The notes below the pieces were generated by a model that was not told the origin of the DNA, ran no database searches, and saw only the letters and a program-made list of their open reading frames with translations. A stretch of 40,765 bases of DNA, from positions 1 to 40,765 of the forward strand of contig JAYZQJ010000008.1 in assembly GCA_036149055.1 (NCBI GenBank). The letters are read 5' to 3'. Each line of letters starts with the position of its first letter. Position 1 is the stretch's first letter. Source of the DNA: Myxococcota bacterium (GTDB lineage Bacteria > Myxococcota_A > Polyangia > Polyangiales > Sandaracinaceae). Both the position numbers and the translations under genes were made by a program. Shown here in pieces: positions 13,601 to 33,824 of this stretch.

Positions 13601-14247
13601 TCCTCGCGGGCCGATCCCTCGAGCAGGGTGTGCAGCGCGACCTCGGCGAACTCGTCGAACCGGGGGTAGGCGAGGGTCGGCCGGGTGACGCCGAGCGCGA
13701 GGCGCAGCGGGCGGTAGCCCTGCCGGGTCCCGAGCCGCTCGAGCGCGGCCACCGCCTCGTCGTCGCGGGAGAGCCGGTCGAGGAAGTCGGCGAGCCGCCG
13801 GGTCTGGGTCGGGAGCCGCTCGTCGGGGGTGTCGAAGAACGGGAGCAGCTCGCCCATGAAGAGCCCGAGGTCGTCGCTCATCGACTCCGGCAGCGTCCGG
13901 TCGAGCGCCTCGGCGAGGCGGGTCCGGTTCTCCATCAGGGCCACGAGCCGCGGGGGCGCGTCGGCGGGAACCGGCGCGTTGGCCTCGCACACCGCCTTCC
14001 AGCGCGCCCCACTCACGTCGCGCGGCTCTCCCTCGGGGCGCGCGCGCTCGGCGTCGGCCGCGATCCGCTCGCAGAAGACCTGGACGATCTCCTCCCCGAG
14101 GCTCCCGTGAGCCACCGGCACCGGCGTCGTGTCGAACTCGGCGCACCCGGGAGAGGTCACCCCCCCGCCGATGGCCGCGCACCCGAGCGCGAACATGATC
14201 GAGAGGCGACGCGCACCCGCACGCCGCCCCGTCTCGCTGTCGTCCAT
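10660..14247 (-). CDS. Large (~1195 aa) putative lipoprotein of unknown function
   Basis: Long ORF with GC-rich third positions. N-terminal hydrophobic stretch ending in a lipobox-like SPG-C, a DxDxDG motif (DLDADGLAD), several Cys clusters and a Cys-rich C-terminus. Start chosen at ATG 14247. Confidence 0.75.
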   Translation of the reverse strand: MDDSETGRRAGARRLSIMFALGCAAIGGGVTSPGCAEFDTTPVPVAHGSLGEEIVQVFCERIAADAERARPEGEPRDVSGARWKAVCEANAPVPADAPPRLVALMENRTRLAEALDRTLPESMSDDLGLFMGELLPFFDTPDERLPTQTRRLADFLDRLSRDDEAVAALERLGTRQGYRPLRLALGVTRPTLAYPRFDEFAEVALHTLLEGSAREEFLDLQAALALELATMEADPSDDAADQTTLALMRELMFTQDDLFRTGEPSYVLLRDARGMALPNPAASLAPFVDLDADGLADVDGLGRFVDGSGAALDVPTPFRIQDETGVPRDPSGRAIRTDGTRYYAYLDASRTMLAGTTAELAPWFEPDAPTLMQMSRGLPVLMGPPADTSFSYGAYTHRYAAFDTTRGPMFDAVHALGELMHRDETEGALIATELLLRDHESAAAGIVRSARFMANESDLHPEAVLTQPNVFWDDLIEVLVRISQRPGMLEAVMRSFSDPRSENGGQLFAAFMRNRDRVTFDPRNPNGPPLGLPLDQAVDRRMPDSFDNESLWQRTVALIDALNGVEVCNRAGARLDLRLTVGPFSFNLAYPLFGRTAGRCELIRIENVAEAYARAIQGDYELELQDGFLDAMVDVASALSVDVDEALEISAGIDGLTRRPTPQALNRLVFWGLSDETGLRSCTPDEDGGDCNSAFAGQVFDPVRDRHGNLVVERYHGTIFAWEAPGFYEAMQPLIEVLHRPGYTYDPEGNYFFGDLLGTLHAHWASPDNDQYCLAPACRPGDPNFSHASNVRGYEELVAAGFEEGQLTQRLHRMNLALEEVEVEPGVDGVAALAAAGEVMIDPRRNVGLTDRFGNGTTRTNDGARELSVTPLYLLLDAFAAMDAAWEAEPERRAEFLIARRAMAEQFLGTRTLGAGFRLENQRARAILLTALPFMRDRIDDHRARGDLLEWATGLDQRMEETMREPLMAALIRFLDAVNEDPEARAALAQLMGYLVSEASENDAFASTLYGAADALMVLEDDRNIVPLMNALSEGLAPNAREVVRSGGALDLEGSAVIDALDLVQDIQAVDDDRTLRRILQNAVSLPAAGDPVTPLETILDVIAEVNRAAPNAGGSLRADDYRAVFGEVTDFMLDEDHGLERLNGVVQHRRCFPEHGTSCGAMGAEMESAGLCYEGASCQCMDMSGSLQWRCARP

Positions 14248-14389
14248 CCCTGGTATCCCCGAAGAAAAGATCCGGAAACAAGGTACCGGCACCGAGGCCC
14301 CGCGCCAACCCGGAGCGGCGCTCGTCGATCTGGAGGGCGGGGCTCGACGCCCGCGAGCGGCGCCTGCGCCCGACGCGGTCGATTCCCAC

Positions 14390-14412
14390 TTGACCCTGAC
14401 ACTAGTGGCAGG
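14390..14412 (+). promoter_or_regulatory. Candidate MerR-family operator next to a TTGACC -35 element
   Basis: TTGACC (14390-14395) overlaps by one base the 18-bp dyad CCTGACACT|AGTGGCAGG (14395-14412, one mismatch), upstream of the SDR-MerR pair. No convincing -10 was found. Confidence 0.6.
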
Positions 14413-14471
14413 CCCCCAGAGCTTCGCTGCGCCCCAGGGCGCCAACCACGATTCCGGGAGGCGAAGCGAAC

Positions 14472-15236
14472 ATGACGAGCGAAAACGAGTGGCAGAGCAA
14501 GGTGGCGATCGTGACCGGGGGGAGCTCCGGCATCGGGCGGGCGGTGGCGCTGGCCCTGGTGGCTCGCGGCGCGAACGTCGTCATCACGGGGCGCGACGCA
14601 GAGCGGCTCGACCGGGTCGCCGCGGAGCACGACGCCATCGAGTCGGTGCGGGCCGACAGCGCGGATCCGACGAGCGCCGAGCGCGTCGTGCGCGCCGCGC
14701 TCTCGCGATGGGACAGGCTGGACTTCGTCGTCAACAACGCCGGCGCGGGTCGACCGCTGCCGATCGAGTCCTATGACTTCCATGCCATCGCCGGGATCTG
14801 CGCAGTGAACATCATCGCGCCTTCGCTCCTCGTGAAGGAGGCGCTGCCGGCGCTGCGGCTGACCCAGGGCGCCATCGTGAACATCGGGACCGCCGTCTCA
14901 CGGAACGCGGCGCCGATGCTCGCGCACTACGCGGCCACCAAGGCGTCCCTCGAGCACCTCACCCGGGCCTGGGCGATGGAGCTCGCGGGCGACGGGATCC
15001 GCGTGAACGCCGTCGCGCCTGGGCCGGTGCGGAGCGGCGCTCTCACCGGGATGATGGGGCTGTCCCAGGAGACCGCGCACGCCGTGGAACGAGAAGAGGC
15101 CGCCCAGGTCCCCCTGGGTCGGCGTGGCGTCACGGATGACATCGTCCCCTGGATCTTGCGCCTCGGGAGCCCCAGGAACGAGTGGACCACCGGGCAGGTC
15201 GTCACCGTCGACGGCGGGTGGTCGTCGCGAACCTGA
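14472..15236 (+). CDS. Classical SDR family NAD(P)-dependent oxidoreductase
   Basis: TGGSSGIG, NNAG, YAATK (YxxxK), RVNAVAPG, TGQVVTVDGG; GGAGG upstream. Confidence 0.95.
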   Translation: MTSENEWQSKVAIVTGGSSGIGRAVALALVARGANVVITGRDAERLDRVAAEHDAIESVRADSADPTSAERVVRAALSRWDRLDFVVNNAGAGRPLPIESYDFHAIAGICAVNIIAPSLLVKEALPALRLTQGAIVNIGTAVSRNAAPMLAHYAATKASLEHLTRAWAMELAGDGIRVNAVAPGPVRSGALTGMMGLSQETAHAVEREEAAQVPLGRRGVTDDIVPWILRLGSPRNEWTTGQVVTVDGGWSSRT

Positions 15237-19637: not shown

Positions 19638-20249
19638 CTACCAGGTCAACTTGAACGAGAAGTCGAGCGGGGTCTTCTGGTCGAGCTCGATCTTGCAGTC
19701 GGCGCCGTGCACCAGCTTCAGGGCGGTGTCGAAGGTGCCGAGGTTGTGCACCGGGCCGAGGAACTCGCCGGTGAAGTCGAAGACGCCGGTGTTGGCGCCG
19801 GTCTGCCGGAAGCGCCGCTCGCCGTAGGAGGCGAGCAGCCCGTAGCCGTTGGGCGCGGCGCCGAGCAGGCGGGTCGGATCCTTGCCCGCGAGCAGGGCCA
19901 TCGTCTTGCCCGCGATCGAGTCGAAGAAGGTGTCGACCGCGCTCGCCCCGATCCGGTGCACCGCGAGATCGAAGCCGCCCTCGCCCGGGGCGAGCAGGCG
20001 CGCCGCCTCCTCCTCGTAGCGCAGGAAGTCGCCCATCGCGTACTTGCTCATCGCGTCGTGCTTCTGCCCGGGGATGCCGGCCGCCTCCTTGGCCTGCTCC
20101 ACCGCGTCCGGGCCGAGGGCCTTCTCGAGCGCGCGGTCGACGGACTGGAAGACGATGCCGCGCAGGGTCTCACCGCCGGACAGCAGCTCACGGCGGTGGG
20201 AGAGGGCCACCTCTTCGGGGGTCGTGGGGCGAAATTTCATCGAAGTCAT
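19638..20249 (-). CDS. DUF2378 / TIGR02265-like myxobacterial protein
   Basis: 3' end of the long antisense ORF, with AAGGA before ATG 20249. Motifs TLRGIVFQ, IG..AVDTFFDSIAGKTM..LAG.DP.RLL...P.GY....SYGER and a terminal W. Confidence 0.8.
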   Translation of the reverse strand: MTSMKFRPTTPEEVALSHRRELLSGGETLRGIVFQSVDRALEKALGPDAVEQAKEAAGIPGQKHDAMSKYAMGDFLRYEEEAARLLAPGEGGFDLAVHRIGASAVDTFFDSIAGKTMALLAGKDPTRLLGAAPNGYGLLASYGERRFRQTGANTGVFDFTGEFLGPVHNLGTFDTALKLVHGADCKIELDQKTPLDFSFKLTW

Positions 20250-20324
20250 GGTCGCATCCTTCGGAGGGAGTCCGCTATCCTCGTACGGGAGGATGGTCGG
20301 TGCAGTGAACCGACCGGAGCCAGG

Positions 20325-23300
20325 GTGCCGAGAGACAGGCTGCCGAAAGCATTCGATCGAGCCATCGCGGTCGTGGGCGTGGGTTGCGTCCTTCCCGACG
20401 CGTTCCGGGTGGACGCCTTCTGGAAGAACACGCTCGCGGGACATCGCGCGCTGCGCACCCTCTCGGGGGGCCCGTACGCCTGGGAGCGCTACCACGATCC
20501 GGACGGTTTGGATACCGAAAGGTCCGCGTCGATCGTGGGGGCGCGGGTCGACGGATGGTCGTTCGACTGGCGGCGCTTCCGGGTGCCGCCGAAGGACGTG
20601 GAGACGGTCAACCCGCTCGCCTTCATGACCGTCGACGCGGGCGCGCAGGCGCTCGACGCGGTGAAGGTGCTCCCCAAGGAGCGCGCCGGCGTGTTCCTCG
20701 GCGCGACCGGCTTCGGCTGGCAGCGCGACGCCGCGCTCCGCATCCGCATGGGCGAGATCGAGGACGCGCTGCGCGGCGCGCTGGAGGCGAGCGGCCGGAG
20801 CCTCGCGACCCTGGAGACGGTCCGCGCGCGCCTCGACGCCCGCCTCGGCCCGGTCACCGACGACACCATCGTCAACGGCCCCTCCTCGGTGGCCGGCGGG
20901 CGCCTGTCGATGATCTACGACCTGCGCGGCCTGCACTACGCGGTGGACGCGGGCTTCGCGTCGGCGCTCGCGGCGCTCGAGGTCGGCGTGCGCAGCCTCC
21001 GCGACGGAACCCTCGACCTCGCGCTGGTCGGGGGCGCCAGCGAGCTGCTCGCGCCCCTCGAGCTGATCGCCTTCAGCCGGCTCGGCGGGCTGTCGCGCGG
21101 CGACGTGACCCCCTTCGACGCGCGCGCGCGCGGCACGCTGCTCGGGGAAGGCGTGGCGATGTTCGCGCTCAAGCGCCTCGCCGACGCGGTGCGCGACGGG
21201 GACGAGGTCTGGGCGGTCGTGCGCGGCGTGGGCGGCGCGTCGGACGGGCGCGGGCGCTCGCTCCTCGCCCCCGACCCCGACGGGCAGGCCCGCGCCATGC
21301 GGCGCGCCTACGAAGACGCCCGGGTCGATCCCGCGGAGCTCCGCTTCGTCGAGTGCCACGCCACCGGCACTCCGGTCGGCGACCGGAGCGAGATGATGGC
21401 GCTCAGCCAGGTGGCGCCGCGGGGCACCTGGATCACCAGCGGCAAGGCGGCGCTCGGTCACCTCCGCGGCGGCGCCGGCGCGGTCGGGCTGCTCCGCGCC
21501 ATCCTCGCGTTGAAGCACCGCGTCTTGCCCGCGCAGCCGGCCTTCGAGTCGCCGAGCGAGGCGGTCGAGGCGAGCGGCCTCGAGGTGCCCCGCGAGAACC
21601 TCCCGCTCGAAGGCGACGGCCCGCTCTTCGCGGGCGTGAGCGCCTTCAGCTTCGGGGGCGTCGACTACCACGCGGTGCTCGAGCGCTTCGATCCCGAGCG
21701 CCACCGGCCGCCTCCGCGGGCGCGGCCGGCCCCGAAGCCGCAGCCGATCGCGATCGTGGGCATGGGCGGCGTGTTCCCCGGCGCCGACGACGTGCCGACG
21801 TTCTGGGAGCGGCTGCTCGAGGGCTACGACGCGACCCGCGAGGTGCCGAAGGAGCGCTGGGACGTCGACCGCTACCATCAGCCCGACGGCGAGGCCCCCG
21901 ACAAGAGCTACACCCGGCTCGGCTGCTTCCTCGACCGCTTCCCGGAGGCGGACCCGAAGTGGCGCATCCCGCCGGCCGCGCTCGCGACCCTCGACCCCGG
22001 CCACCTCGTCTGCCTGCGCGCCGCCGAGGAGGCGCTCGCCGACGCGGGCGTCGACCCGGAGGGCTGGGGCCCGCGCGCGCGCACCGCGGTGATGCTCGCG
22101 TTCCTCCCCTACCAGGGGAAGAAGTTCCTCGCCGACGTCAGGGTGAACTTCCGCGAGGTCCGCGCCGAGCTCGAGGCGGCCCTCGCCGAGGCGGGCGCGG
22201 CGCCGGAGGAGATCGCGAAGATCTCCGAGGACGCCGCGGCGCGCTTCTCGGCCGGCCTGCCGCCGCTCGGCGAGGACACCCTGACCGGCTACCTCGGCAG
22301 CCTGAACGCGGGGCGCATCGCCCACCGCTTCGATCTGCAGGGGCCCCACTTCGTCGTCGACGCCGCGTGCGCGTCGACCCACGCGGCCGTGCACGCCGCG
22401 GTGCAGGCGCTGCGGCACGGGACCGCCGACTGGGCGCTCACCGGCGGCGTCTGGGCGGACATGCAGCCCGAGTTCTTCGTCGGCGCGTGCCGCTTCAACG
22501 CGCTCAGCCCGACCGGGAGCACGCCCTTCGACGCGAGGGCCGACGGCTTCATCCCGGGCGAGGGCGGCGGGGTGCTCGTCCTGCGCCGGCTCGAGGACGC
22601 GGTCCGGGACGGGCAGCGCGTCCACGCCGTCATCCGCGGCGTCGGCGGCTCGAGCGATGGCAAGGGTCGATCCGTGCTCGCCCCGACGCAGGAGGGCGAG
22701 GCGGAGGCGATGCGCCGCGCGCTCGAGGAGGCCGAGCTGGTCGGCGCCGACATCGGCTACGTCGAGTGCCACGGGACCGGGACCGCGCTCGGCGACGTGG
22801 TGGAGGCGCACGCGTGCGCGGACGCGTTCGGCGCCGACGGGGAGGGCGCGCCGCGCGAGGCCCCGCTCCGCATCGGGTCGGTCAAGTCCAACATCGGCCA
22901 CCTCAACGCGGCCGCCGGGGTGCCGGGCATCATCAAGGCCGCGCTCGCGCTGCGGGAGGGCGTGATCCCGCCGTCGCTCAAGGTCGCCGCGCCCAACCCC
23001 AAGATCGACTTCGCGGGGCGCAACCTCGAGGTGGTGCGGGCCGCCACCCGCTGGGATCGACCGCCCGGGGGCGCGCGCCGGGCCGGGGTCAGCTCGTTCG
23101 GAGTCGGCGGCGCCAACATGCACGTGATCCTGGAGGAGCACCGCGCGCAGGGGACGGCCCGCGAGACCCCGGAGGCGCCGCGGCTCGAGCCCTCCGCGCT
23201 GCCCCCGATCGCGTCGGTGGCGGCGGCCACGCCCGCGGCGCTCGTGCCCCAGTTCGAGGCGCTCGCGCGCGCCTACGCCGACGGAGGCGTCGAGGCGCTC

Positions 23301-26300
23301 GCCCGCCCGGTCGGCGGCGGCCCGGTGCGCGCCGCCATCGTCGCGCCGACGCCGGACGAGCTCGCCCGGCGCGTCCGCCTGCTCGCCGCGGCGGTGGAGC
23401 GCGACCGCGGCTTCGGCTTCCTGCGCGCGCAGGGCGTCTTCGTCGCCGCGGCCGGCTCGCCGGTGGTCGCCACCTTCCCGGGGCAGGGCTCGCACTACGC
23501 CAACATGGGCCGCGCGCTCGCGGGCGCCGAGCCGGTGTTCCGGGCCATCGTCGAGGAGTTCGACGACGCCTACCAGACGATGACCGGCCGGCGCCTCACC
23601 GCGTCGTTCTGGACCGACTCGCCGGAGACCTGGGAGCAGCACGACGAGGACATCCACTGCGCGGTGATGGCGATCAACGTCGCGCTCCACCGCATGCTGG
23701 CCGAGCGGGGCCTCGCGCCCTTCGCGCTGGTCGGGCAGAGCGCGGGGGAGCTGTCGGCGCTCGTCGTCGCCCGCAGCCTCTCGATCGCCGACGGGCTCCG
23801 CGCGGTCTGGGAGCGGACGCTCGCGGTGCTCGCGCTCGAGCGCGACGACCCCGGGCGCATGATCTCGATCCGGGCCGGCAAGGAGCGCGTCGAGCCGCTG
23901 CTGGTCGGCCTCTCGGGCTACGCGGCCATCGCCGCCGACAACGGCCCGGGCGCCTGCATCGTGAGCGCGGACCGGAAGGCGCGGAACATCCTGGTCACGC
24001 GCCTGACCGACAGCGGGATCGAGCACTCGGTGCTCGCGGTCTCGCACGGCTACCACAGCGCCCTGATCGCCGACGCGCGCCCCGCCTACCAGGCCGCGCT
24101 GCGCACGCTGTCGTTCGCCGAGCCGAGCCTCCCCATCTGGTCGACGATCACCGGGGGCCCGCTCTCGGCGGTGCGTCCGGACGGGATGCCCGAGCACCTC
24201 GCGTCCCAGTTCGTCGAGCCGGTGCGGCTCCGCGGCGCGATCGAGGGCGCGCACCGCGCCGGCGGCCGGCTGTTCGTGGAGTGCGGGCCGAAGTGGCCGC
24301 TGACCACCTTCACCGAGGCCATCCTCGGCGAGCGCGAGCACGTGGCGCAGGCGACCCTCCACCCCAAGGTCGGCGAGACGGAGTCCGCGGCCCGCGCGAT
24401 CGCGTGTCTGGCGGTGCACGGGCACCTCGCCGGCTGGCCCGGCGTCCGGCGCAAGCGCTCCAGCTCCGGGGTGATGCCCGCCGGGAGCGCGCCGCCCGAG
24501 CCCGAGGTGGAGGCGCCGTCTCGCGCCGAGGCGCAGGACGAATTGCAGGACGCTGCGCGCTCGGTCGCCGAGCTCGCGTCGGTGGGCGTGCGGGACGGGG
24601 CCCCGAGCCGCGAGGCGCTGATCGCGCTGCTGCGTCAGATCCGGGATCTCATCGACGAGACCCTCGGCGCGCCCCCGGTCGAGGCCGAGGCTCGCCGGCA
24701 GGCGGTGAACGACCCGGAGCGCTTCCCCAGCGAGGCGCCGACCGATCGCCGCGCGCCGGTCGCGCTCGTCCGCGTGCCGAGGCCGGCGCCGCGCCTCCCT
24801 TCGAGCCGGCCCTCGAGCCGGCCGTCGAGCGTGCCGCCGATGAGCGCGTCCGAGCTCGAGGCGCGCCTGCGCGAGGCGTTCGCCGGTCGGACCGGCTACC
24901 CGGTCGAGATGCTCGAGCCGGGGCTCGACCTCGAGGCGGATCTCGGCATCGACACCGTCAAGCAGGTGGCCGTGCTCGGGGGGCTGCGCGAGGAGCTCGG
25001 GCTCACGCTGGACGCGGCCTTCGTGCCGCGGGACCACCCGACCATCGCGGCGATGGCCCGCTACCTCGAGGGGCGCATGCAGGCGGCCGCGCCGACCTCG
25101 GGGACCCGGGAGAGCGCGTTCGCCGCCGCCCGGCGCTCGAGCGCCGCCCTCGCCGAGAAGGGGCTGCTCGACCGGCTGCAGCGCGCGTTCGCCCAGCGCA
25201 CCGGCTACCCGGTGGAGATGCTCGAGCCGAGCCTCGACCTCGAGGCCGACCTCGGGGTCGACACCGTCAAGCAGGTCGCGGTGCTCTCGGCGCTGCGCGC
25301 GGAGCTCGGCCTCGCGCCGGACGAGACCTTCGAGCTGCGCCGGCACCCGAGCCTCGGATCCCTCGCGCGCTACCTCGCCGGCCGGATCACCGCCGCCGCG
25401 CGCGCGCTCCGGGAGCCGTCGAGCGTCCCGCCCCGCGGTCGCACCAGCTGGCCGGCCGCGCACACCCCGGGGACGCTGCGCGCGGACATGCGGCGGCGGC
25501 TCGTCGACGCCTTCGCGCGGCGGACTGGCTACCCGGAGGAGATGCTCGAGACCGATCTCGACCTCGAGGCGGATCTCGGCATCGACACCGTGAAGCAAGT
25601 GGCGGTGCTCTCCGAGGTCCGCGAGTCGATCGGCCTCGAGGTGGACGAGACCTTCGAGCTCCGCGTGCACCCGACGCTCGGGCACCTGGTCGACTACTTC
25701 GTCGCCCGGGTCGGCGGGACCCGGCGCTCGCCGGCGCCGCGGGAGCGCCGCTCGAGCCTGCCGGCGGCCCCGACCAGCGAGGTGGGGGCCCTGCTGCGCC
25801 GCGCCTTCGCCGAGCGCACCGGCTACCCCGAGGAGATGCTCGACGAGGAGCTCGAGCTCGAGGCGGACCTCGGCATCGACACCGTCAAGCAGGTCGCGGT
25901 GCTCGGGCAGGTGCGCGAGAGCCTGCAGCTCGCGCCCGACGCCGACTTCGTGCTGCGCGACCACCGCACGCTCGCCGACCTCGTCGCCTACTTCCGCGGG
26001 CGCCTCGCCGGGGCCGCGCCGCCCGCCTCGAGCTTGCCTCCGCCGCGCCCGGGCCCCGCCTGGCCGGCCACCGAGGTGGCGAGCGCCGCCTTCTCGCCGC
26101 GGAGCGAGGGCACCGGGCCGTCCCCGCACGATCCGGCCGCGCGGGTGGTGACCGACGGGCGGCTGGTGGAGCTCGCGCTCGGCGCGCTCCCCGACGAGGC
26201 GGCGTTCACCCTGCGCGGGCTCGCCTTCGACCGGCCGGCGCTGGTGCCGGAGGCGGGGCGGCTCACCCTGAAGGTCGAGCGCGAGGAGCGCGCCGCGCCT

Positions 26301-26909
26301 CGGGTCCGGGTCTGCCGGGACGGCGAGCTCTGCCTCGCCTTCGAGGTGTCTCCGGACGCGCCGCCGGGGGCCGCCGCGCTCTCGCCCGAGCTCGCGTCGG
26401 CGCTCGACGCGCGCTGGGGAGACAACGCGAGCGCGATCGGCGAGGAGCTCGGCCGCCCGGCGCCGCTGAGCCGCGGCTTCGTGTGCGCCCCGCGGTGGGA
26501 TCAGGTGGCCAGCGAGCACGCGATGAGCGGGGAGCCCTGGCGACGCCGGGCCGCCGACCTGATCGAGCTCGGGCTCTGGCAGGCGGTGCTCGCCTGGTCG
26601 CATCAGCTCGGCGCGACGCACCTCGTGCGCGGGGCGGCCCGGGTCTGGCTCCGGGCGGTGCCCCCGCCGGGCGCGCGGGTCCGCGCCGTCACCCAGCTGC
26701 GCCCCCGGAGCGGCGGGCGCGCGCGCGCCGACACCCTGCTCCACGACGCCGACGGCGCCTGCTTCGGCGGCGTCGAGGGCATCGAGGGGGTCGCGATCGG
26801 CGCGCCCGCGCTCGACGTCACCCGCGGCGGAGAGGCGGTCGCGCGCTGGCAACACCTCTCGCGTCGCCTCACCGGGCCGATCCTCCCGGGGGAGGACGTC
26901 GGATGGTGA
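20325..26909 (+). CDS. Iterative-type I PKS subunit A: KS0-KS-AT-ACPx4-degenerate DH-like domain (~2194 aa)
   Basis: GTG 20325 after GGAG. KS1 DAGFAS/HATGT/GHL; KS2 DAACAS/HGTGT/KSNIGHL; AT FPGQG..GQSAG..HGYHS; four ACPs TGYPxEML..LEADLG[IV]DTVKQ; C-terminal hot-dog-like segment without the DH His motif. Confidence 0.9.
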   Translation: MPRDRLPKAFDRAIAVVGVGCVLPDAFRVDAFWKNTLAGHRALRTLSGGPYAWERYHDPDGLDTERSASIVGARVDGWSFDWRRFRVPPKDVETVNPLAFMTVDAGAQALDAVKVLPKERAGVFLGATGFGWQRDAALRIRMGEIEDALRGALEASGRSLATLETVRARLDARLGPVTDDTIVNGPSSVAGGRLSMIYDLRGLHYAVDAGFASALAALEVGVRSLRDGTLDLALVGGASELLAPLELIAFSRLGGLSRGDVTPFDARARGTLLGEGVAMFALKRLADAVRDGDEVWAVVRGVGGASDGRGRSLLAPDPDGQARAMRRAYEDARVDPAELRFVECHATGTPVGDRSEMMALSQVAPRGTWITSGKAALGHLRGGAGAVGLLRAILALKHRVLPAQPAFESPSEAVEASGLEVPRENLPLEGDGPLFAGVSAFSFGGVDYHAVLERFDPERHRPPPRARPAPKPQPIAIVGMGGVFPGADDVPTFWERLLEGYDATREVPKERWDVDRYHQPDGEAPDKSYTRLGCFLDRFPEADPKWRIPPAALATLDPGHLVCLRAAEEALADAGVDPEGWGPRARTAVMLAFLPYQGKKFLADVRVNFREVRAELEAALAEAGAAPEEIAKISEDAAARFSAGLPPLGEDTLTGYLGSLNAGRIAHRFDLQGPHFVVDAACASTHAAVHAAVQALRHGTADWALTGGVWADMQPEFFVGACRFNALSPTGSTPFDARADGFIPGEGGGVLVLRRLEDAVRDGQRVHAVIRGVGGSSDGKGRSVLAPTQEGEAEAMRRALEEAELVGADIGYVECHGTGTALGDVVEAHACADAFGADGEGAPREAPLRIGSVKSNIGHLNAAAGVPGIIKAALALREGVIPPSLKVAAPNPKIDFAGRNLEVVRAATRWDRPPGGARRAGVSSFGVGGANMHVILEEHRAQGTARETPEAPRLEPSALPPIASVAAATPAALVPQFEALARAYADGGVEALARPVGGGPVRAAIVAPTPDELARRVRLLAAAVERDRGFGFLRAQGVFVAAAGSPVVATFPGQGSHYANMGRALAGAEPVFRAIVEEFDDAYQTMTGRRLTASFWTDSPETWEQHDEDIHCAVMAINVALHRMLAERGLAPFALVGQSAGELSALVVARSLSIADGLRAVWERTLAVLALERDDPGRMISIRAGKERVEPLLVGLSGYAAIAADNGPGACIVSADRKARNILVTRLTDSGIEHSVLAVSHGYHSALIADARPAYQAALRTLSFAEPSLPIWSTITGGPLSAVRPDGMPEHLASQFVEPVRLRGAIEGAHRAGGRLFVECGPKWPLTTFTEAILGEREHVAQATLHPKVGETESAARAIACLAVHGHLAGWPGVRRKRSSSGVMPAGSAPPEPEVEAPSRAEAQDELQDAARSVAELASVGVRDGAPSREALIALLRQIRDLIDETLGAPPVEAEARRQAVNDPERFPSEAPTDRRAPVALVRVPRPAPRLPSSRPSSRPSSVPPMSASELEARLREAFAGRTGYPVEMLEPGLDLEADLGIDTVKQVAVLGGLREELGLTLDAAFVPRDHPTIAAMARYLEGRMQAAAPTSGTRESAFAAARRSSAALAEKGLLDRLQRAFAQRTGYPVEMLEPSLDLEADLGVDTVKQVAVLSALRAELGLAPDETFELRRHPSLGSLARYLAGRITAAARALREPSSVPPRGRTSWPAAHTPGTLRADMRRRLVDAFARRTGYPEEMLETDLDLEADLGIDTVKQVAVLSEVRESIGLEVDETFELRVHPTLGHLVDYFVARVGGTRRSPAPRERRSSLPAAPTSEVGALLRRAFAERTGYPEEMLDEELELEADLGIDTVKQVAVLGQVRESLQLAPDADFVLRDHRTLADLVAYFRGRLAGAAPPASSLPPPRPGPAWPATEVASAAFSPRSEGTGPSPHDPAARVVTDGRLVELALGALPDEAAFTLRGLAFDRPALVPEAGRLTLKVEREERAAPRVRVCRDGELCLAFEVSPDAPPGAAALSPELASALDARWGDNASAIGEELGRPAPLSRGFVCAPRWDQVASEHAMSGEPWRRRAADLIELGLWQAVLAWSHQLGATHLVRGAARVWLRAVPPPGARVRAVTQLRPRSGGRARADTLLHDADGACFGGVEGIEGVAIGAPALDVTRGGEAVARWQHLSRRLTGPILPGEDVGW
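24850..26010 (+). repeat. Four tandem ACP domains inside PKS A
   Basis: Four copies of F..RTGYP.EML....DLEADLG.DTVKQVAVL..R..L.L joined by Pro/Ser/Arg-rich linkers. Confidence 0.9.
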
Positions 26910-29900
26910 GCCGGGTCATCGGGTGGTCGGCGTGGCTGCCGGGCGCGCGGGGCGCCGACGAGGTGGCGGCGCGGATCGACGCGGCGGAGCCCGCGTTCGA
27001 GACGCTGCCGGAGCTGCGCTGGAGCTGGGACGTCTTCGCGGCCGAGATGCCGCCGGGCCACGCGCGCTGCGAGCGGGGCGCGATCCTCGGCGAGCCGGAG
27101 GTCGACTGGCGCGCGCTGAAGCTGCCGCCGCTCTCGGTCGCGCGCATGCACGCGATGGAGAAGGTGGCGCTCGAGGTGATGGCCACCGCGCTGCGGGACG
27201 CCGGCGTCGCCCCTCGCAGCCCCGCCGGCGAGCGGGTGCGCGTCTATCTGGCGGCCACCACGCTCGGGCCCGATCCCCGGACCGATCACGGCCGCCGGAT
27301 CCGTCGGCACGAGCTGGCGCGGCCGGTCGCGCGGGCGCTGGAGGAGAAGGTCCCCGAGCGCGCGGAGGAGGTGCGGGAGTACGTCGACAGCCTGTTCAAC
27401 CTCGTCGCGCCGCCGGTCGAGCCCGACAGCATGATGAGCTCCGCGAGCATCCTCGCCGGCCGCATCTGCAACCTGTGGGATCTGCGCGGCGGGCACGTGG
27501 CCATCGACGGCTCGGCCGCGTCGTCGCTCGCGGCGCTCGAGGCGGCGCTCGAGGATCTCGCCGACGGCGCCTGCGACGTCGCGCTGGTGGCCGCCGTCTC
27601 GCCGATGCTCACCGCCTCCGGCATGCTCGCGATGGCGCACCGGGGCTTGCTCGGCGCGGCGGCGCCCCGGCCCTTCTTCGCCGGCGCGGACGGCGCGCTG
27701 CTCGGGGAGGGGGCGGCGGCGCTGGTGCTGGACCGCGGCGCGACCGAGGGCGCGCGGACCCGCGGCTGGATCGAGGCGGTCGCCGGGGCGACGCTGCCTC
27801 GCCGGGGCCGCCATCGCCTCCGGGACGCGGTGGCCCGGGCGACCGCGGACGCCTTCGAGCGCGCCGGGGTCTCGGCCGAGGCGGCGGCGTTCGTCGCGTC
27901 CCGCGCCGCGGGCGTCCCGGCGGTGGAGCGCGAGGAGGCGGCCGCCCTCGCCGACGTCTTCGGCAGCGCGGCGCGCGCGCGGGGCCTGCCGCTCGCCTGC
28001 CACAGCCCGGTCTTCGGTCACCTCGGCCCGGCCTCGGGGCTGGTCGCGACGCTGCACGCGCTGATGGCCCTGGAGCGCGGCAGCCTTCGCGCGCCCCTCG
28101 TGGACACGGGCGCGGAGGAGGCGCTCGCGCCGGGGCTGCGGGTCGGAGCCGAAGATCAGCCGCTCGCGCCGGACGCGCGCGCGGGGGTGAGCGACGCGGG
28201 CCTCGCCGGCCGCGCCTACCACGCGGTCGTCGCCGGCCCGGAGGCGCGCCGGGCGCCCCGCATCGAGGCGACGCCGACGCCCGAGCCGCTCGCGATCACC
28301 GGGCTCGGGATGGTCGTGCCGGGCGCGGACGGCGTGGACGCGTTCTGGGACAACGTCGCGCGGCGGGTCGAGTCGATCGGAGATCTGCCGGCGAGCCGCT
28401 GGGACGTCGACTCGTTCATCGACGCCTCGGAGGAGCTGGGCGCGATCCTCAAGACGCGGCTCGCGGCGCCGGTGCGCCTCCCCGCGCCCGACCCGGCGCG
28501 CTTCCGCCTCTCGCCCTCGGCGCTCGAGGAGATCGATCCCGCGGTGCTGCTCTCGATGGCGAGCGCCGAGCAGGCCATCGACGACTCGGGCGGGGTGGAG
28601 GGCTGGGCCAAGCACCGGGTCGCGGTCACCGCAGGGCAGCTCTCGCTGCGCTGGAGCGAGGCCGAGCTGGAGAAGCGCGTGCTCTTCGCCGGGCACGTCG
28701 CCCTCGTCGCCCAGGCGATGCGCGAGTCCGGCTTCGACGGCGCGCGGGTCGACGCCGTCATCGAGGCGGCCCGGGGCGCCTTCGAGGGCCCGCGCTTCGG
28801 CGGCCAGGCGCTCGGCGCCCGCACGAGCCTGGAGTGCGCGGCCCACGTCGCGCGCTTCTGGGGGCTGACCGGCCCGGTGCTCTCGGTGGACGCGGCCTGC
28901 GCCTCCTCGATGGCCGCGATCGAGCGCAGCGCCCGGAAGCTCGCGCGCCGGGAGGCGGACGCCGCGATCGCGATCGGCGTCGCCTACAACCTGCTGCCCG
29001 AGTACTACATCGTGCTCAGCATCCTCGGCGCGCTCTCGCCCCGCGGCGCCCCGCCGTTCCACCTGGGCGCGGACGGCTTCGTGCCCGGGGAGGGCGCGGC
29101 CGCGATCGTGCTCGAGCGGCTGAGCGACGCGCAGGCCCGCGGCGCGAAGGTGCACGCCGTGATCCGCGCCCTCGGCGTGTCGAGCGACGGCGCCGGGCTC
29201 AGCATCTTCGCGCCCAACAGCGAGGGCGAGCAGCGCGCGATCCGGCGCGCGCTCGAGCTCGGCGGGTGGAGCCCCCGCGACGTGGACCTGGTCGAGGCCC
29301 ACGGCACCGGGACGAAGCTCGGCGACGAGACCGAGATCCACTCCTACGCCGCCACCTACGGCGACCGGGATCCGACCCGCCCGCTGACGGTCGGCACGGT
29401 GAAGTCGCAGGTCGGCCACCTCAGCTCGGCCGCCGGCATGGTGGGCATCGTCAAGACGACGCTCGCGGTGCGGGAGGGCGTCTTGCCGCCGACCCTGGGC
29501 GAGGATCCGAGCCCCGAGCTCACCCAGGGGCCCCTGCGGCTGCCGGCGCACGCCCGGGCGTGGGTGGCGCCGGAGGGCCGGGCGCGCCGGGCGGGCGTGA
29601 GCGCCTTCGGGCTCGGCGGGATCAACTACCACGTGCTGCTCGAGGAGGCGCCGACGCCGCCCGAGGAGCGCCGCGAGCGCGCGCGCGGCCTGCCCCAGGC
29701 GCAGCTCCCGGCCCGGGACCCGCTCGCCGATCGCTTCGAGGTCGAGCTGACCCCGGTGAGCCTCGGCGCGCGCGTCCCGCGGACGCCGCTCTCGGGGCGG
29801 GTGGTGTGGGTCCTGCCCGACGCCGGCGGGCTGTGGCGCGCGGTCGGGGCGGCGCTCGAGCAGCGGGGCGCGCGGGTGAGCCTGCTGAGCTCCGGGACCG

Positions 29901-32167
29901 ACGGAGCCCCGCCCGCCGACGGCATCGTCGACCTCGCCACCTTCGGCGCGCCGGTCGAGGGCGACCTCCACGCGCGGGCCAGCGAGGCCACGCGGCGCGC
30001 CCTGAGCACGCTCCGCCCGGTCTACGACCGCTTCGCGCGGGCCCGCCCGGGGGGCGCGTTCTACGCGGCGGTCACCAGCCTCGGCGGAGACCTCGGGCTC
30101 GGCGGCGGGGGAGAGGGAGACCTGGCCGGCGCCGCGCTGCTCGGGCTCGCCAAGGGACTCAAGCAGGAGCTCCCGTCGAGCCTCTGCCGCGGGATCGACT
30201 TCGACCCCCGCGAGGATCCGGAGACGGTCGCCGAGGTGGTGGTCCGGGAGCTCGAGGACGGCAACGACCAGCTCGAGGTGGCGTGGGCCGGGCGCCGGCT
30301 GGTGCCGCGCCTCCGCCGCCTCCCGCTCGGCGAGGACGCGCCCCACCGCCCGATCGAGGCGTCCGACGTGGTCGTGGTCAGCGGGGGCGGCCGCGGCGTG
30401 GTCTTCGAGTGCGCGACGGCGCTGGCCCGGCTCGGCGCCCGGGTGGTCGTCACCGGCCGCACCGCGCTGCCCGACCCCGACGCGCCCTTCCTGGAGCTCG
30501 ACGACGAGGCCTTCCAGCGCTTCGGCCGCGAGCACATGCTGCGACGCCGGAGGGAGGACCCGTCGAGCTCTCCGAAGCGCCTGCGCGCCGAGATCGACGC
30601 CCTCGAGCGGCAGCGCGAGCTGCACGAGAACCTGCGCCGCGCCCGGGCGGACCAGCTCTCGCTCGAGTACGAGGAGTGCGACGTGACCGACCGCGACGCC
30701 GTCACCGCGCTCGTGGAGCGCGTCCGCGCGCGCTGGGGTCCCATCACCGGGCTCGCGCACGGCGCGATGGTGCAGTGGTCGACGCTCGCCTCGCGCAAGG
30801 AGCCGGACAAGGTCGACGCCACCCTCGCGGTGAAGGGCCTGGCGCTCTCGCACCTCCTCGACGCGACCCGGGACGATCCGCTGAAGATCGTGCTCGGCTT
30901 CGGCTCGGGCGCGGGGCGCTTCGGCAACCGCGGGCAGGCCGACTACTGCGCGGCGAACGCGCTGATGGCGGCCCAGATCGCGGCCGCGGGGCAGCGGGAC
31001 CGCCGCGGCGCGCGCTTCGTGACCGTCGACTGGACGGCCTGGGATCAGGTGGGCGCCGCGGTCGAGGACCCGGACCTGACGGAGCTCCTGCGCTCCACCG
31101 GCATCACCTCGATCTCGGTGGAGGAGGGCCTCTACTGGTTCCTCCGCGAGTGGACCGCGGGGGTGAGCTCCGAGGTGGTCGTCTTCGAGGAGCGCATGCT
31201 GCACGACTGGCCGTTCCTCGGCCGGCAGGCGGAGCACGACGCGCGCGGCGCGGTGGAGATCGACGACCTCGGCCGGCCGTTCACGCCGGGCGCGTGGCCG
31301 CTCGTCGACCGGGTGCTGGAGCGCGAGCCGGGGCGCCTCGTCATCGAGCGTCGGCTCGACGCCTCGCGCGACGCGTTCCTCTCGCAGCACCGCTTGCACG
31401 GCGTGCCGATCCTGCCGGCGACCTTCGGCTGCGAGCTGCTCGCCGAGGTGGCCGCGCTCTGCATCCCCGGGATGGAGGTCGAGGAGGCGTACGACGTGCG
31501 CATCCAGACCCCGGCGAAGCTCTTCCGCGAGCGCCCGCTGGTGATCCGGGCCCGCGCGGTGCTCGAGGCGGACGGGGAGGGCGACGCGCTCGTCCGGAGC
31601 GAGTCGCGCTCGCGGCTGACGCTCCGCGGACGCCACCTCGAGGAGCGCGTCCATCACGGCGCGCGCTTCCGCCTGCGGCCGATGGGCACGGCGGCCATCG
31701 AGCCCCGGGTGATCGAGGAGCTCGACGGAGCGGCCAAGGCGCGCTCGTTCTTCCACATGGCGCGCGACCCGGTGACGCTCGGCCCGCTCTACTCCCGCGG
31801 CGAGTGGATCCAGGTGAAGGACGAGGTCGTGGTCGGCCGGATCCGCGCGCCGCGCCAGCGCGACGTCAGCGACCGCACGAGCTACCCGCTCTTCCAGGTC
31901 GATCCCCTCATGATGGACACCGCGTTCCAGATCGCGGCGAACTGGGACGGGCTCGGCGGGGGCCACGTCTCGATCCCTTACGGCCTCGAGCGCCTGCGCA
32001 TGGGCCGCGCGAGGCGCCGCGGGGAGGGCGCGCGGGTGCGGGCGCAGGTCACCCGGGTCGACGACCCCGACGTGTACTACGACATCGACGTGGCGTCGGA
32101 GGACGGCGAGCTGCTCATGGAGATCCGCGGGCTGCATCTCCGGCGCATCGCGAAGGCCGACGGATGA
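26903..32167 (+). CDS. Type I PKS subunit B: KS0-KS-KR-DH (~1754 aa), no AT or ACP
   Basis: ATG 26903 after GGAGG, overlapping the PKS A stop. KS3 DGSAAS/SRAAG (no Cys, no first His); KS4 DAACAS/HGTGT/KSQVGHL; KR SGGGRGV..GRFGNRGQADYCAAN; DH FLSQHRLHGVPILP..MDTAFQ. Confidence 0.9.
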   Translation: MVSRVIGWSAWLPGARGADEVAARIDAAEPAFETLPELRWSWDVFAAEMPPGHARCERGAILGEPEVDWRALKLPPLSVARMHAMEKVALEVMATALRDAGVAPRSPAGERVRVYLAATTLGPDPRTDHGRRIRRHELARPVARALEEKVPERAEEVREYVDSLFNLVAPPVEPDSMMSSASILAGRICNLWDLRGGHVAIDGSAASSLAALEAALEDLADGACDVALVAAVSPMLTASGMLAMAHRGLLGAAAPRPFFAGADGALLGEGAAALVLDRGATEGARTRGWIEAVAGATLPRRGRHRLRDAVARATADAFERAGVSAEAAAFVASRAAGVPAVEREEAAALADVFGSAARARGLPLACHSPVFGHLGPASGLVATLHALMALERGSLRAPLVDTGAEEALAPGLRVGAEDQPLAPDARAGVSDAGLAGRAYHAVVAGPEARRAPRIEATPTPEPLAITGLGMVVPGADGVDAFWDNVARRVESIGDLPASRWDVDSFIDASEELGAILKTRLAAPVRLPAPDPARFRLSPSALEEIDPAVLLSMASAEQAIDDSGGVEGWAKHRVAVTAGQLSLRWSEAELEKRVLFAGHVALVAQAMRESGFDGARVDAVIEAARGAFEGPRFGGQALGARTSLECAAHVARFWGLTGPVLSVDAACASSMAAIERSARKLARREADAAIAIGVAYNLLPEYYIVLSILGALSPRGAPPFHLGADGFVPGEGAAAIVLERLSDAQARGAKVHAVIRALGVSSDGAGLSIFAPNSEGEQRAIRRALELGGWSPRDVDLVEAHGTGTKLGDETEIHSYAATYGDRDPTRPLTVGTVKSQVGHLSSAAGMVGIVKTTLAVREGVLPPTLGEDPSPELTQGPLRLPAHARAWVAPEGRARRAGVSAFGLGGINYHVLLEEAPTPPEERRERARGLPQAQLPARDPLADRFEVELTPVSLGARVPRTPLSGRVVWVLPDAGGLWRAVGAALEQRGARVSLLSSGTDGAPPADGIVDLATFGAPVEGDLHARASEATRRALSTLRPVYDRFARARPGGAFYAAVTSLGGDLGLGGGGEGDLAGAALLGLAKGLKQELPSSLCRGIDFDPREDPETVAEVVVRELEDGNDQLEVAWAGRRLVPRLRRLPLGEDAPHRPIEASDVVVVSGGGRGVVFECATALARLGARVVVTGRTALPDPDAPFLELDDEAFQRFGREHMLRRRREDPSSSPKRLRAEIDALERQRELHENLRRARADQLSLEYEECDVTDRDAVTALVERVRARWGPITGLAHGAMVQWSTLASRKEPDKVDATLAVKGLALSHLLDATRDDPLKIVLGFGSGAGRFGNRGQADYCAANALMAAQIAAAGQRDRRGARFVTVDWTAWDQVGAAVEDPDLTELLRSTGITSISVEEGLYWFLREWTAGVSSEVVVFEERMLHDWPFLGRQAEHDARGAVEIDDLGRPFTPGAWPLVDRVLEREPGRLVIERRLDASRDAFLSQHRLHGVPILPATFGCELLAEVAALCIPGMEVEEAYDVRIQTPAKLFRERPLVIRARAVLEADGEGDALVRSESRSRLTLRGRHLEERVHHGARFRLRPMGTAAIEPRVIEELDGAAKARSFFHMARDPVTLGPLYSRGEWIQVKDEVVVGRIRAPRQRDVSDRTSYPLFQVDPLMMDTAFQIAANWDGLGGGHVSIPYGLERLRMGRARRRGEGARVRAQVTRVDDPDVYYDIDVASEDGELLMEIRGLHLRRIAKADG

Positions 32168-32778
32168 GTGGGCCGCCGGAGGTGCGCGGCGTCTCCTGGG
32201 GCGTCGCGCGCGTCGGCGAGGAGGGCCCCGCGGTGGCGGAGCTCGATCGGCTCGGGCCGCGCGCGACCGAGGCGCGCCGGGCCACCTTCGTCGCCGGCCG
32301 TCGCGCCGCCCACCGCGCGCTCGAGGCCTGCCTCGGCGCCGCGCTCCGGGTGGACGCCGACGCCCTCGGCAAGCCGGTGGTGTCCGCGCCGGGGGTCGAG
32401 CTGTCGATCACCCACGCCGGAGGCTGGGCGCTCGCCGCCGCGGCTCGCGCTCCGCTCGGGGTGGACCTGGTCGAGGTCGAGCCGCTGCCCGACGCGCTGA
32501 TCGAGGACGCGCTGGCGCCGGGGGAGCTCGACGCGTGGCGCGCGCGGATCGCGGACGAGGCGCTCGCCCGCAGCCTCGCCTTCGCGGGCAAGGAGGCCGC
32601 GCTGAAGTGGCTCGGCGTCGGCATGGCGATCCCGCTGCGGCAGGTCCGCCTGACGCCGGGCGCGCAGACGGGAACGCTGCGCCACCCGCACGGCCGGGCC
32701 GAGCTGCCGCTGCGCTGGTTCGAGCTCCGGCCGGCGCTCTGGGCGGTGCTGCTCGGCGGCGGTACCCTCGGGGCGTGA
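32164..32778 (+). CDS. 4'-phosphopantetheinyl transferase
   Basis: ATGA overlap with PKS B. Motifs FVAGR..A, GKP, LSITH, GVDLV and FAGKEAALK. Confidence 0.88.
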   Translation: MSGPPEVRGVSWGVARVGEEGPAVAELDRLGPRATEARRATFVAGRRAAHRALEACLGAALRVDADALGKPVVSAPGVELSITHAGGWALAAAARAPLGVDLVEVEPLPDALIEDALAPGELDAWRARIADEALARSLAFAGKEAALKWLGVGMAIPLRQVRLTPGAQTGTLRHPHGRAELPLRWFELRPALWAVLLGGGTLGA

Positions 32779-33824
32779 ACGCCGCCCTCCGCCCCCTGGC
32801 CACCCTCCGCCTCCTGCCCGCCCTCCGCCTCCTGGCCGTCCTCGGGCTCGCGGCGCTCTGCGCCCTCGCGCCGCCCGACGTGGGCGCGCAGCAGGCGGAG
32901 CCCCAGCACGTGATGCGGCTCGGCTCGCTCATGCCGCGCAACGCGGTGGGCCGCAGAGGCATGGCCCGCTGGAACCGGATGCTCGCCGAGGCCACCGACG
33001 GGCGCCTGCAGGTGCGCATGTACTGGGGCGGTTCGATGGGCGACGAGCGTACGATGGTGCGCCGCATGCGCATCGGCTCGCTGGACGCGGCGAGCCTGAC
33101 GTCCACGGGGCTCTCCATCATTCACCGCCCGGTGCTGGTGATGCAGGCGCCCGGCATCTTCTCCTCCTACGCGCAGGTCGACGCGGTGCGCCGCGAGATC
33201 GGGCCGGAGATGGCGCGGGCGCTCGAGGGGCAGGGCTACGGGCTGCTCGGCTGGGGCGACGCCGGGCGGGTGCGGCTCTTCTCCAAGGAGCCGCTGCGCC
33301 GGCCGACCGACCTGAGGCGCATGCGCCCCTGGGTCCCGCGCACCGACGCCGTCTTCCGCCAGATGCTCTCGGTGGTCGGCGCCAACGGGGTGCCCCTCGG
33401 GGTCGGCGAGGTCTTCGGCGGACTGCGCACCGGCATGATCGACGTGGCCCCCGGCACCGCGCTCGCGGTCGCGGGCCTGCAGTGGTTCACCTCGCTCTCC
33501 TACGCGACCGCGCAGTCGGACGGCTTCCTGATCGGCGGCATGGTGGTGCGCCGGCCGTTCCTCGATCAGCTCTCCGCCGAGGACCGGGCGGCGCTCTTCG
33601 AGATCGCGGAGCAGAACCACGAGCGGCTCCTCCGGCAGACCCGGCGGGCCGACGAGCGCGCGTTCCAGGCGCTCACCCGGCACGGCATCCAGCCGGTCGA
33701 CGTGGAGGCGCATCGGGGCGAGTGGCAGCGCGTCGCGGACCAGACCCGCCAACAGCTGGCCGGTCGGGTGTTTCCGCGGGAGTTGTTGACCCGGGTCGAG
33801 GCGATCGCCGCCCGAACCCGCTGA
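32775..33824 (+). CDS. dctP: TRAP transporter substrate-binding protein (DctP family)
   Basis: GTGA overlap with the PPTase. Signal peptide, then EATDGRLQVRMYWGGSMGDERTMVRRMRIGSLDAA and EVFGGLRTGMID. An 18-nt tandem repeat (about 3 copies, 32781-32834) lies in the signal-peptide coding region. Confidence 0.85.
   Translation: MNAALRPLATLRLLPALRLLAVLGLAALCALAPPDVGAQQAEPQHVMRLGSLMPRNAVGRRGMARWNRMLAEATDGRLQVRMYWGGSMGDERTMVRRMRIGSLDAASLTSTGLSIIHRPVLVMQAPGIFSSYAQVDAVRREIGPEMARALEGQGYGLLGWGDAGRVRLFSKEPLRRPTDLRRMRPWVPRTDAVFRQMLSVVGANGVPLGVGEVFGGLRTGMIDVAPGTALAVAGLQWFTSLSYATAQSDGFLIGGMVVRRPFLDQLSAEDRAALFEIAEQNHERLLRQTRRADERAFQALTRHGIQPVDVEAHRGEWQRVADQTRQQLAGRVFPRELLTRVEAIAARTR

Follow-up and report, generated by a model that had tools for sequence, protein, structure and literature searches.

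Iterative synthases and a myxobacterial cassette

A polyunsaturated fatty acid (PUFA) synthase, such as PfaA-E or the myxobacterial Pfa1-3, brings together ketosynthase (KS), malonyl acyltransferase (MAT), tandem acyl carrier protein (ACP) and ketoreductase (KR) domains, with or without a dehydratase (DH), on a KS-MAT-ACPn-KR(-DH) subunit, and carries in PfaC a didomain of a KS and a chain length factor (CLF). Hgl synthases (Type F), in which HglA is an enoyl reductase (ER) and HglB also has a role, combine KS-CLF-AT (AT, acyltransferase) with reductive release, and the enediyne synthase PksE is a single KS-AT-ACP-KR-DH-PPTase polypeptide (PPTase, phosphopantetheinyl transferase) accompanied by a thioesterase (TE). 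Type R synthases are described as KS-MAT-CLF-ACP3-6-KR enzymes with a PPTase, with or without acetyl-CoA carboxylase (ACC) (Shulse and Allen 2011, PMC3098273), RerA of Rhodococcus as an ER-less Pfa-like iterative polyketide synthase (PKS) with tandem ACPs producing polyenes of up to C22 (PMC11563203), and the dawenol synthase as a heterologously expressed PKS of 21 kb (PMC8719831), elsewhere called 'PUFA-like' (PMC8767328). Here, we report on a contig of 40,765 nt (C8; hereafter the window, meaning this whole stretch) from the genome of a Myxococcota bacterium (G000; 9.9 Mb, 73% GC, with myxobacterial relatives), which carries a four-gene PKS cassette of 13 kb. This cassette adds a new architecture to the dawenol-type PKSs and is not a new kind, and the threonine (Thr) found in all its ACPs at the position of the expected serine (Ser) is the more surprising point.

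The cassette and its active sites

The cassette consists of a DUF2378/TIGR02265 gene on the reverse strand (19638-20249; Pfam and NCBIfam), followed on the forward strand by PKS subunit 1 (gene 1, 20325-26909, 2194 aa), PKS subunit 2 (gene 2, 26903-32167, 1754 aa) and a dedicated Sfp-type PPTase (32164-32778, 204 aa; Pfam ACPS and 4PPT_N). The two PKS genes, the PPTase gene and the next gene, dctP (32775-33824, forward strand, 349 aa; Pfam DctP), overlap successively by 7, 4 and 4 nt, and the third-position GC of these four open reading frames (ORFs) is mostly above 0.93. The overlaps and the domain order, KS0-KS-AT-ACP4-DH0 and KS0-KS-KR-DH (KS0 and DH0 being dead domains), had been put forward in an initial annotation of the window and are borne out by the ORFs and by Pfam, which finds KS, KS, AT and four PP-binding domains in gene 1, and KS, KS, KR and DH in gene 2; the order is real, intact and conserved. 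The same annotation contained neither the Thr residues of the four ACPs nor the DUF2378 gene as a member of the unit, and it had counted dctP within the operon, a role in the pathway that is ruled out by the empty sites of two relatives devoid of the PKS (G002 and G004). In these genomes, dctP lies about 100 bp from a SPOR gene that here flanks the other side of the cassette, and therefore the cassette is delimited to 19638-32778, a segment gained at (or lost from) that site, with dctP as an ancestral flanking gene. Among the loci examined, only those of G000 and G001 have dctP next to the PKS, although in the window it overlaps the PPTase stop codon. The cassette is a compact and mobile unit.

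In each subunit, the first KS is inactive and the second active, as had been read initially. KS0a (20358-21683) has Phe211 in place of the catalytic Cys and keeps both His residues, and it probably serves as a CLF-like partner of KSa (21741-23138), whose triad Cys682-His816-His859 is active; KS0b (26903-28234), a putative structural partner, has lost the Cys (Ala205) and the first His and here keeps the second, while KSb (28283-29647) has the active triad Cys666-His800-His839. KSa and KSb are only 41% identical. By analogy with the KS-CLF didomain of PfaC, the KS0-KS pairs may form pseudo-dimers within one polypeptide, the CLF-like half coming first; the KS0a-KSa linker is of 20 aa, for family medians of 21 (gene 1) and 19 (gene 2). 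The only AT of the cassette (23469-24374) has Gln-Ser replacing His-Ser in its active site, an HGYH-type specificity loop and the conserved Arg, and it precedes four tandem ACPs (24849-26006). The KR catalytic core (30371-31045) keeps its NADPH motif, Ser1335, Tyr1348 and Asn1352, and the PKS-type DH (31298-32158) keeps His1496 and Asp1672, all of these domains lying on the forward strand.

The DH-like C-terminus of gene 1 suspected in the initial annotation is also real. Its last 260 aa (DH0, 26127-26906, forward strand) resemble a PKS DH in its second hot-dog (atlas feature match PS-DH 0.95), and a profile of 27 rows, from which five further DH-like rows were left out, matches the gene-2 DH profile in hhalign (probability 85%, E 6e-6) against less than 1% for three control profiles. 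The domain has neither the catalytic His nor the Asp, has a conserved C-terminal Trp-containing helix, and gave a single-sequence model with a mean pLDDT of 38; this dead DH possibly docks subunit 2.

Neither ER, TE nor FabA domains occur among the 27 window ORFs scanned with Pfam, in line with the initial annotation, which had further claimed that the window holds no reductase; that part fails, as a short-chain dehydrogenase/reductase (SDR) is encoded at 14472-15236, about 5 kb upstream and outside the cassette. A scan for sigma-70 promoters and terminators returned 0 sites. In four RNA-library runs from two studies, contigs extend about evenly over the cassette and its flanks (28-30 of 30 bins), a pattern that DNA carry-over could also produce and that speaks neither for nor against expression. 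Decay of the locus, named in the initial annotation as part of what would refute it, is ruled out by crude dN/dS values relative to G001 (gene 1, 0.24; gene 2, 0.18; PPTase, 0.33; DUF2378, 0.16) and by catalytic residues that are invariant across the family.

Homologues and distribution

Conservation was followed in 71 gene-1 homologues, taken by architecture and identity from the best 120 of 217 matches, and in 61 full-length gene-2 homologue clusters (the window's own included) from the best 120 of 500 matches. All 71 gene-1 homologues have a KS0a without Cys, an intact KSa triad and a GQS-type AT; they bear 0-4 ACPs, and the six without ACP end at or shortly past the AT. The catalytic Cys of KS0b is found in 0/61 gene-2 homologues (three have a Cys one residue later) and the second His is lost in 56/61, while KSb Cys-His-His, KR Ser/Tyr/Asn and DH His/Asp are intact in 61/61. 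Gene-1 and gene-2 homologues form 21 pairs on contigs of equal size, a number of pairs picked as matches and not a rate. Named gene-2 homologues are mostly myxobacterial (Anaeromyxobacter dehalogenans, Cystobacter fuscus, Archangium spp., Nannocystaceae), and the cassette in such cultured strains (A. dehalogenans, C. fuscus, Archangium spp.) allows a direct test of KSs sharing an ACP array.

The PKS is patchily distributed, being present in 3/32 genomes of the host family (a fourth, weaker match is Type-R-like). Orthologues of the PKS (through its AT), the PPTase and the DUF2378 gene occur in the same 5/73 genomes of another order and in none of the other 68; G023 enters these genome tallies only, as a negative. 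A gene-2 KS0 query over 401 genomes found orthologues only in G000 and G001, and a metagenome scan brought up 80 distant loci, most of them Type-R-like, with no member of this cassette's family.

Several homologues depart from this layout. In the P0134/P0048 clusters (Cystobacter, Archangium), gene 1 terminates with a short helical tail in place of the dead DH, and accession numbers imply one extra gene between both PKS genes, in Cystobacter presumably EPX64880. Bacillota also have KS0-KS-AT-ACP(Thr) gene-1 homologues (P0177 of Ectobacillus funiculus and P0178 of Brevibacillus sp., 45-51% identity per domain), with no gene-2 homologue named from these taxa among the matches listed. Four proteins of ~2800-2900 aa (P0062, P0207, P0220, P0223) have the order KS-KS-AT-ACP(Thr)-C45 peptidase/acyltransferase-KR-DH, with Cys in both KSs; the C45 domain within them might serve in release or amide formation.

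The DUF2378 gene is divergently placed before gene 1 in 7/8 loci, and the cassette-linked copies cluster together (one clade, SH 0.998), separate from five G000 paralogues. A match to HNOB (H-NOX-like) in four of six members, with a best E of 6e-5 and below cut-off, weakly suggests a small-molecule-binding fold; the DUF2378 profile gave no credible match against the PDB, and the family has no known function (PMC9257966). In one lineage, a cytochrome P450 gene follows the linked DUF2378 gene (G498), a UbiA prenyltransferase gene lies nearby (G494, G496) and amidohydrolase genes lie beyond (L159:11986-13617, L161:6091-7041, L181:2005-2976); these possible local tailoring genes are unconserved in other loci.

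Kinship with the probable dawenol PKS

After these homologues, the next-best gene-1 matches form a group of KS0-KS-AT proteins (1362-1395 aa) encoded by Stigmatella aurantiaca DW4/3-1 and Sg a15, S. erecta, Myxococcus stipitatus, M. landrumensis, Corallococcus BB12-1 and Hyalangium. In two of these genomes, a contig of equal size also encodes a four-KS-DH protein, and BB12-1 has, again on a contig of equal size to that of its KS0-KS-AT protein, an ACP5-KR protein with Thr in 5/5 ACPs. The dawenol cluster BGC0000044 is sourced from DW4/3-1 (PMC12211065), dawenol clusters are given for two strains, BB12-1 and SCHIC03 (M. landrumus/M. landrumensis) (PMC10435759), and the cluster is stated to be conserved in Stigmatella (PMC12766979); no dawenol entry appears in the supplements of PMC12766979 and PMC10435759. 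The Stigmatella/Corallococcus set (P0184/P0192, P0122/P0123 and P0302 families) is thus very probably the dawenol polyene PKS, BGC0000044, with ADO69378 and its neighbours as the candidate daw genes. The dawenol paper of Osswald et al. (2014; PMID 25102237) may already describe tandem KSs and Thr ACPs. Among the phylum and class samples, in which only 2-6 candidates were scored per genome, no dawenol-type genome was found, and the plasmid collection yielded modular PKSs only.

The KS phylogeny proposed in the initial annotation was run on 95 KS domains (supports are FastTree local supports). The active KSs of both window subunits form one clade with dawenol-type KS2 and KS4 (SH 0.997), and KS0a clusters with KS1 and KS3 of the dawenol type (0.935); the window AT and KR likewise group with the dawenol-type proteins (AT clade 0.991, KR clade 0.885). 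These trees suggest duplication of a KS0-KS didomain, which led to two stations in this cassette and to three in dawenol-type synthases. Both systems have KS0-KS didomains, one GQS-type AT (12/12 dawenol-type proteins), one KR, one active DH and a Thr ACP array, with 38-43% identity over KS0, KS, AT and KR, and no ER is found in the three dawenol-type proteins, as in the cassette. Several one-clade KS0-KS didomains sharing one AT/KR/DH/ACP array, a feature defined from the presumed Daw proteins, are thus present here as well. The cassette nevertheless differs by having two KS0-KS pairs instead of three, another gene and domain order, an extra dead DH, and 13 kb against the 21 kb reported for dawenol (PMC8719831). 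The 'undescribed pathway' of the initial annotation is accordingly less well supported, given that KS0, KS, AT and KR group with a very probable dawenol PKS, though the searches made brought up no characterised cluster that has exactly this order. The cassette is the simplest member seen here of the dawenol-like design, and predicts a new myxobacterial metabolite.

Comparison with other iterative synthases

The cassette shares with PUFA and Hgl synthases its KS/AT/ACP ancestry, tandem ACPs, an inactive KS beside an active one and the lack of a TE, and the PfaA model TIGR02813 gives the best NCBIfam E-value, yet with 871 bits it stays below the 1010 cut-off. It differs from them in having no ER or FabA-type DH, an inactive KS that comes first, two pairs, and Thr instead of Ser ACPs: the KR sits on the second subunit, the didomains are in the reverse order to KS-CLF, the KS0s fall outside the Pfa3 KS group, and no PfaD-type ER or FabA-type DH was detected in the window nor in the ORFs scanned around seven other loci. 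The Hgl combination of features is likewise missing, with a single AT and no ER or reductase domain in the cassette. As initially stated, the order thus departs from that of PUFA synthases and from that of PksE.

PksE and RerA/RerB of Rhodococcus (PMC11563203) resemble the cassette as iterative KS/AT/ACP/KR/DH systems without ER, having their own PPTase and an expected polyene output; they have a single KS and a TE, whereas the two subunits here bring four KS domains and lack a TE. The 'enediyne polyketide synthase' labels borne by some homologues are automatic source names. The cassette also lacks the ACP-KS-AT-ACP-TE layout of Pks13-type condensases, the Pks13 model NF040607 reaching 613 and 250 bits on the window subunits against a cut-off of 2100.

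Type R synthases share with the cassette the lack of an ER, an adjacent or fused PPTase and tandem ACPs, and loci likened to Type R by their layout also have Thr ACPs. They are nonetheless one-gene systems: in Type-R-like synthases, a single polypeptide carries an active KS at its N-terminus and an AT of GHS/HAFH type, with no KS0-KS pairs and no DUF2378 seen, whereas the cassette has two PKS genes and falls in separate clades in the KS, AT and KR trees.

Threonine carriers and a candidate PPTase

Serine is the rule at the attachment site of carrier proteins. All four window ACPs read DTVKQ, with Thr codons at 24954, 25263, 25587 and 25881 at the phosphopantetheine site, and in alignments with solved ACPs such as PigH 5y08, this Thr takes the place of the attachment Ser. 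In the family, Thr occupies 133/133 ACP motifs (65 proteins), with no Ser within four residues in any, and in de-duplicated loci, Thr is found 226 times and Ser 6 times. All four ACN codons are used (131, 68, 14 and 13 of 226), and therefore the residue itself is selected.

A wider survey took the best 150 representatives for an ACP1 query (ACP1 at 24849-25079; 1951 matches, E <= 1e-10), a query biased towards Thr, and gave 90 all-Thr proteins, 56 all-Ser proteins, one with six Thr and an Ala, and three unread. A fused PPTase was detected in 19/90 Thr proteins versus 1/56 Ser proteins by BLAST (15 and 0 by motif search), and most of the de-duplicated loci mentioned above are single-gene KS-AT-KS'-ACPn-KR-DH synthases with a PPTase, often with ACC, a layout termed Type R in PMC3098273. 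In the literature searched, which covered few subscription journals, we found no report of threonine phosphopantetheinylation, and the word 'threonine' has 0 occurrences in the consulted part of PMC3098273.

The cassette PPTase has the motif GxDLV, without the second metal-binding Glu, and follows gene 2 in 6/7 loci, the G494 orthologue lying on another contig. G000 carries two other PPTases, and the cassette PPTase nonetheless co-occurs with the PKS; it is a candidate threonine-modifying enzyme. The lineage-wide Ser-to-Thr carrier switch, with its co-inherited PPTase, is more surprising than the architecture. A broader proposition can be made tentatively, its parts taken jointly: a Pfa-derived lineage switched to threonine phosphopantetheinylation with co-inherited PPTases, in this branch of it the biosynthetic programme is set by KS0-KS cassettes added round a shared ACP array, and this chemistry is not in print. 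The lineage in question would take in, besides this cassette, the dawenol-type PKS together with Type-R-like and other tandem-KS enzymes, in at least 90 clusters at 50% identity. If so, Thr ACPs and their PPTases would be an orthogonal carrier/PPTase pair and a possible tool for PKS engineering, and building with KS0-KS cassettes round one ACP array would lie between the iterative and the modular PKS designs. Thr domains may be scored as inactive under annotation rules, and if Thr ACPs are loaded, hundreds of clusters have been misread.

Other Thr synthases were encountered on the way. L066-L145 (metagenome), L177-L180 and P0301-P0446 are Type-R-like single-gene synthases (KS-AT-KS'-ACP2-6-KR-DH), nearly all of them with Thr ACPs, often followed by a single-chain acetyl-CoA carboxylase of ~1880 aa and a PPTase; a few keep Ser, as P0326 (a metagenome-assembled genome of Heimdallarchaeota) and P0396. 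P0316 and P0368 (the latter from uncultured Desulfobacter sp.) are synthases of ~3900-4000 aa with Thr ACPs and several KSs, and the N-terminal NMO/ER-family domain of P0316 indicates that Thr carriers also occur with an ER.

A working model and its alternatives

We consider it somewhat probable that the cassette is a self-contained, iterative dawenol-type PKS giving a polyene-type chain. The cassette PPTase would attach phosphopantetheine to the Thr of four equivalent ACPs, and the single AT would load (methyl)malonyl units. In each subunit, the dead KS may fold against the active one as a CLF/KS-like pair, arranged the other way round from PfaC, so as to form two elongation stations with different acyl pockets, acting in turn on chains of the shared ACP array: KSa would start and extend, and KSb would continue. 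That two active KSs share one ACP array had been proposed initially and is upheld, the AT being shared as well; since there is only one AT, KR, DH and ACP array, the programme would have to be set by the KS pairs. The single KR and the single DH would reduce and dehydrate the cycles, and double bonds would stay because there is no ER, as for RerA (PMC11563203), leaving a conjugated polyene or a partly hydroxylated polyenoyl chain. Release could be brought about by something outside the PKS, for example an acyltransferase or hydrolase of the host, with DUF2378 as a possible binder or sensor of the product.

Several points weigh against this model. Escherichia coli AcpS reportedly modifies poorly an E. 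coli ACP in which Ser is replaced by Thr (S36T). The dawenol identification draws on strain distribution, together with contigs of equal size; the DH tree links the window to the dawenol-type set weakly (0.72), and the domain split differs, the dawenol type being KS0-KS-AT, KS0-KS-KS(C-H-Y)-KS-DH and ACP5-KR. The five genomes in which PKS, PPTase and DUF2378 co-occur represent about two independent lineages, G013 has the PKS without a DUF2378 orthologue, and no release enzyme was found in any locus examined. The host also has a separate canonical pfa cluster (ER, KS-AT, Ser ACP-KR and KS-CLF, split over C47:1-4805 and C191:1-8196) whose ER could act in trans. A PPTase beside tandem ACPs is described as normal in Ser-type Pfa clusters too (PMC3098273).

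Use of such a trans ER, whether the genome's Pfa ER or a fatty acid synthase enzyme, would turn the cassette into a secondary-lipid synthase making long saturated or mono-unsaturated, possibly hydroxylated, alkyl chains, which host acyltransferases would move into membrane or spore lipids. The Pfa-like ancestry seen with TIGR02813, the tandem ACPs, the lack of a TE, the ACC genes adjoining related Thr-ACP Type-R-like synthases and the PfaD-like ER of G000 on C47 all speak for this outcome, which we judge unlikely: all 8 loci examined lack an ER, the nearest relative is a probable dawenol polyene PKS, and both the patchiness within the host family and the position of the insert between two ancestral genes agree better with a specialised metabolite than with a core lipid.

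It is less likely still that the Thr ACPs are unloaded and act as scaffolds or regulators, with a free-standing host Ser ACP carrying the chain. Such a role would accord with the established rule of Ser at the carrier site, with the absence of threonine phosphopantetheinylation from the literature searched, and with the Ala found at the site of the seventh ACP of P0303, which indicates that individual copies can be dead; it is at odds with the 1-7 Thr copies kept per protein and their conserved helix-II motif, the division of proteins into all-Thr and all-Ser, the enrichment of PPTase fusions in Thr proteins, and the loci themselves, where no free ACP gene was seen.

Of the two products contemplated in the initial annotation, the polyene of our model is the better suggestion, and the head-to-head joining of two acyl chains by KSb after elongation by KSa (Pks13- or OleA-like, with KR and DH then giving a long ketone, alcohol or alkene) is improbable, since, even if it would explain two active KSs without a TE and the identity between them is low, KSb comes from the same KS0-KS duplication and clade as KSa and keeps an elongating triad, the Pks13 scores are far below cut-off, no second AT, acyl-AMP ligase or carboxylase is in the cassette, and the condensed product would remain ACP-bound.

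Neighbouring genes in the window

Further upstream on the reverse strand, a FadL/TodX-type outer-membrane transporter gene (8939-10732) lies beside an ORF of 1261 aa without Pfam match (10660-14445), after which comes the SDR gene mentioned above. On the forward strand, 16141-16656 matches the 23S rRNA intervening-sequence (four-helix bundle) family with an E of 6e-12, though above the Pfam cut-off, within a stretch of lower GC where no rRNA gene was identified.

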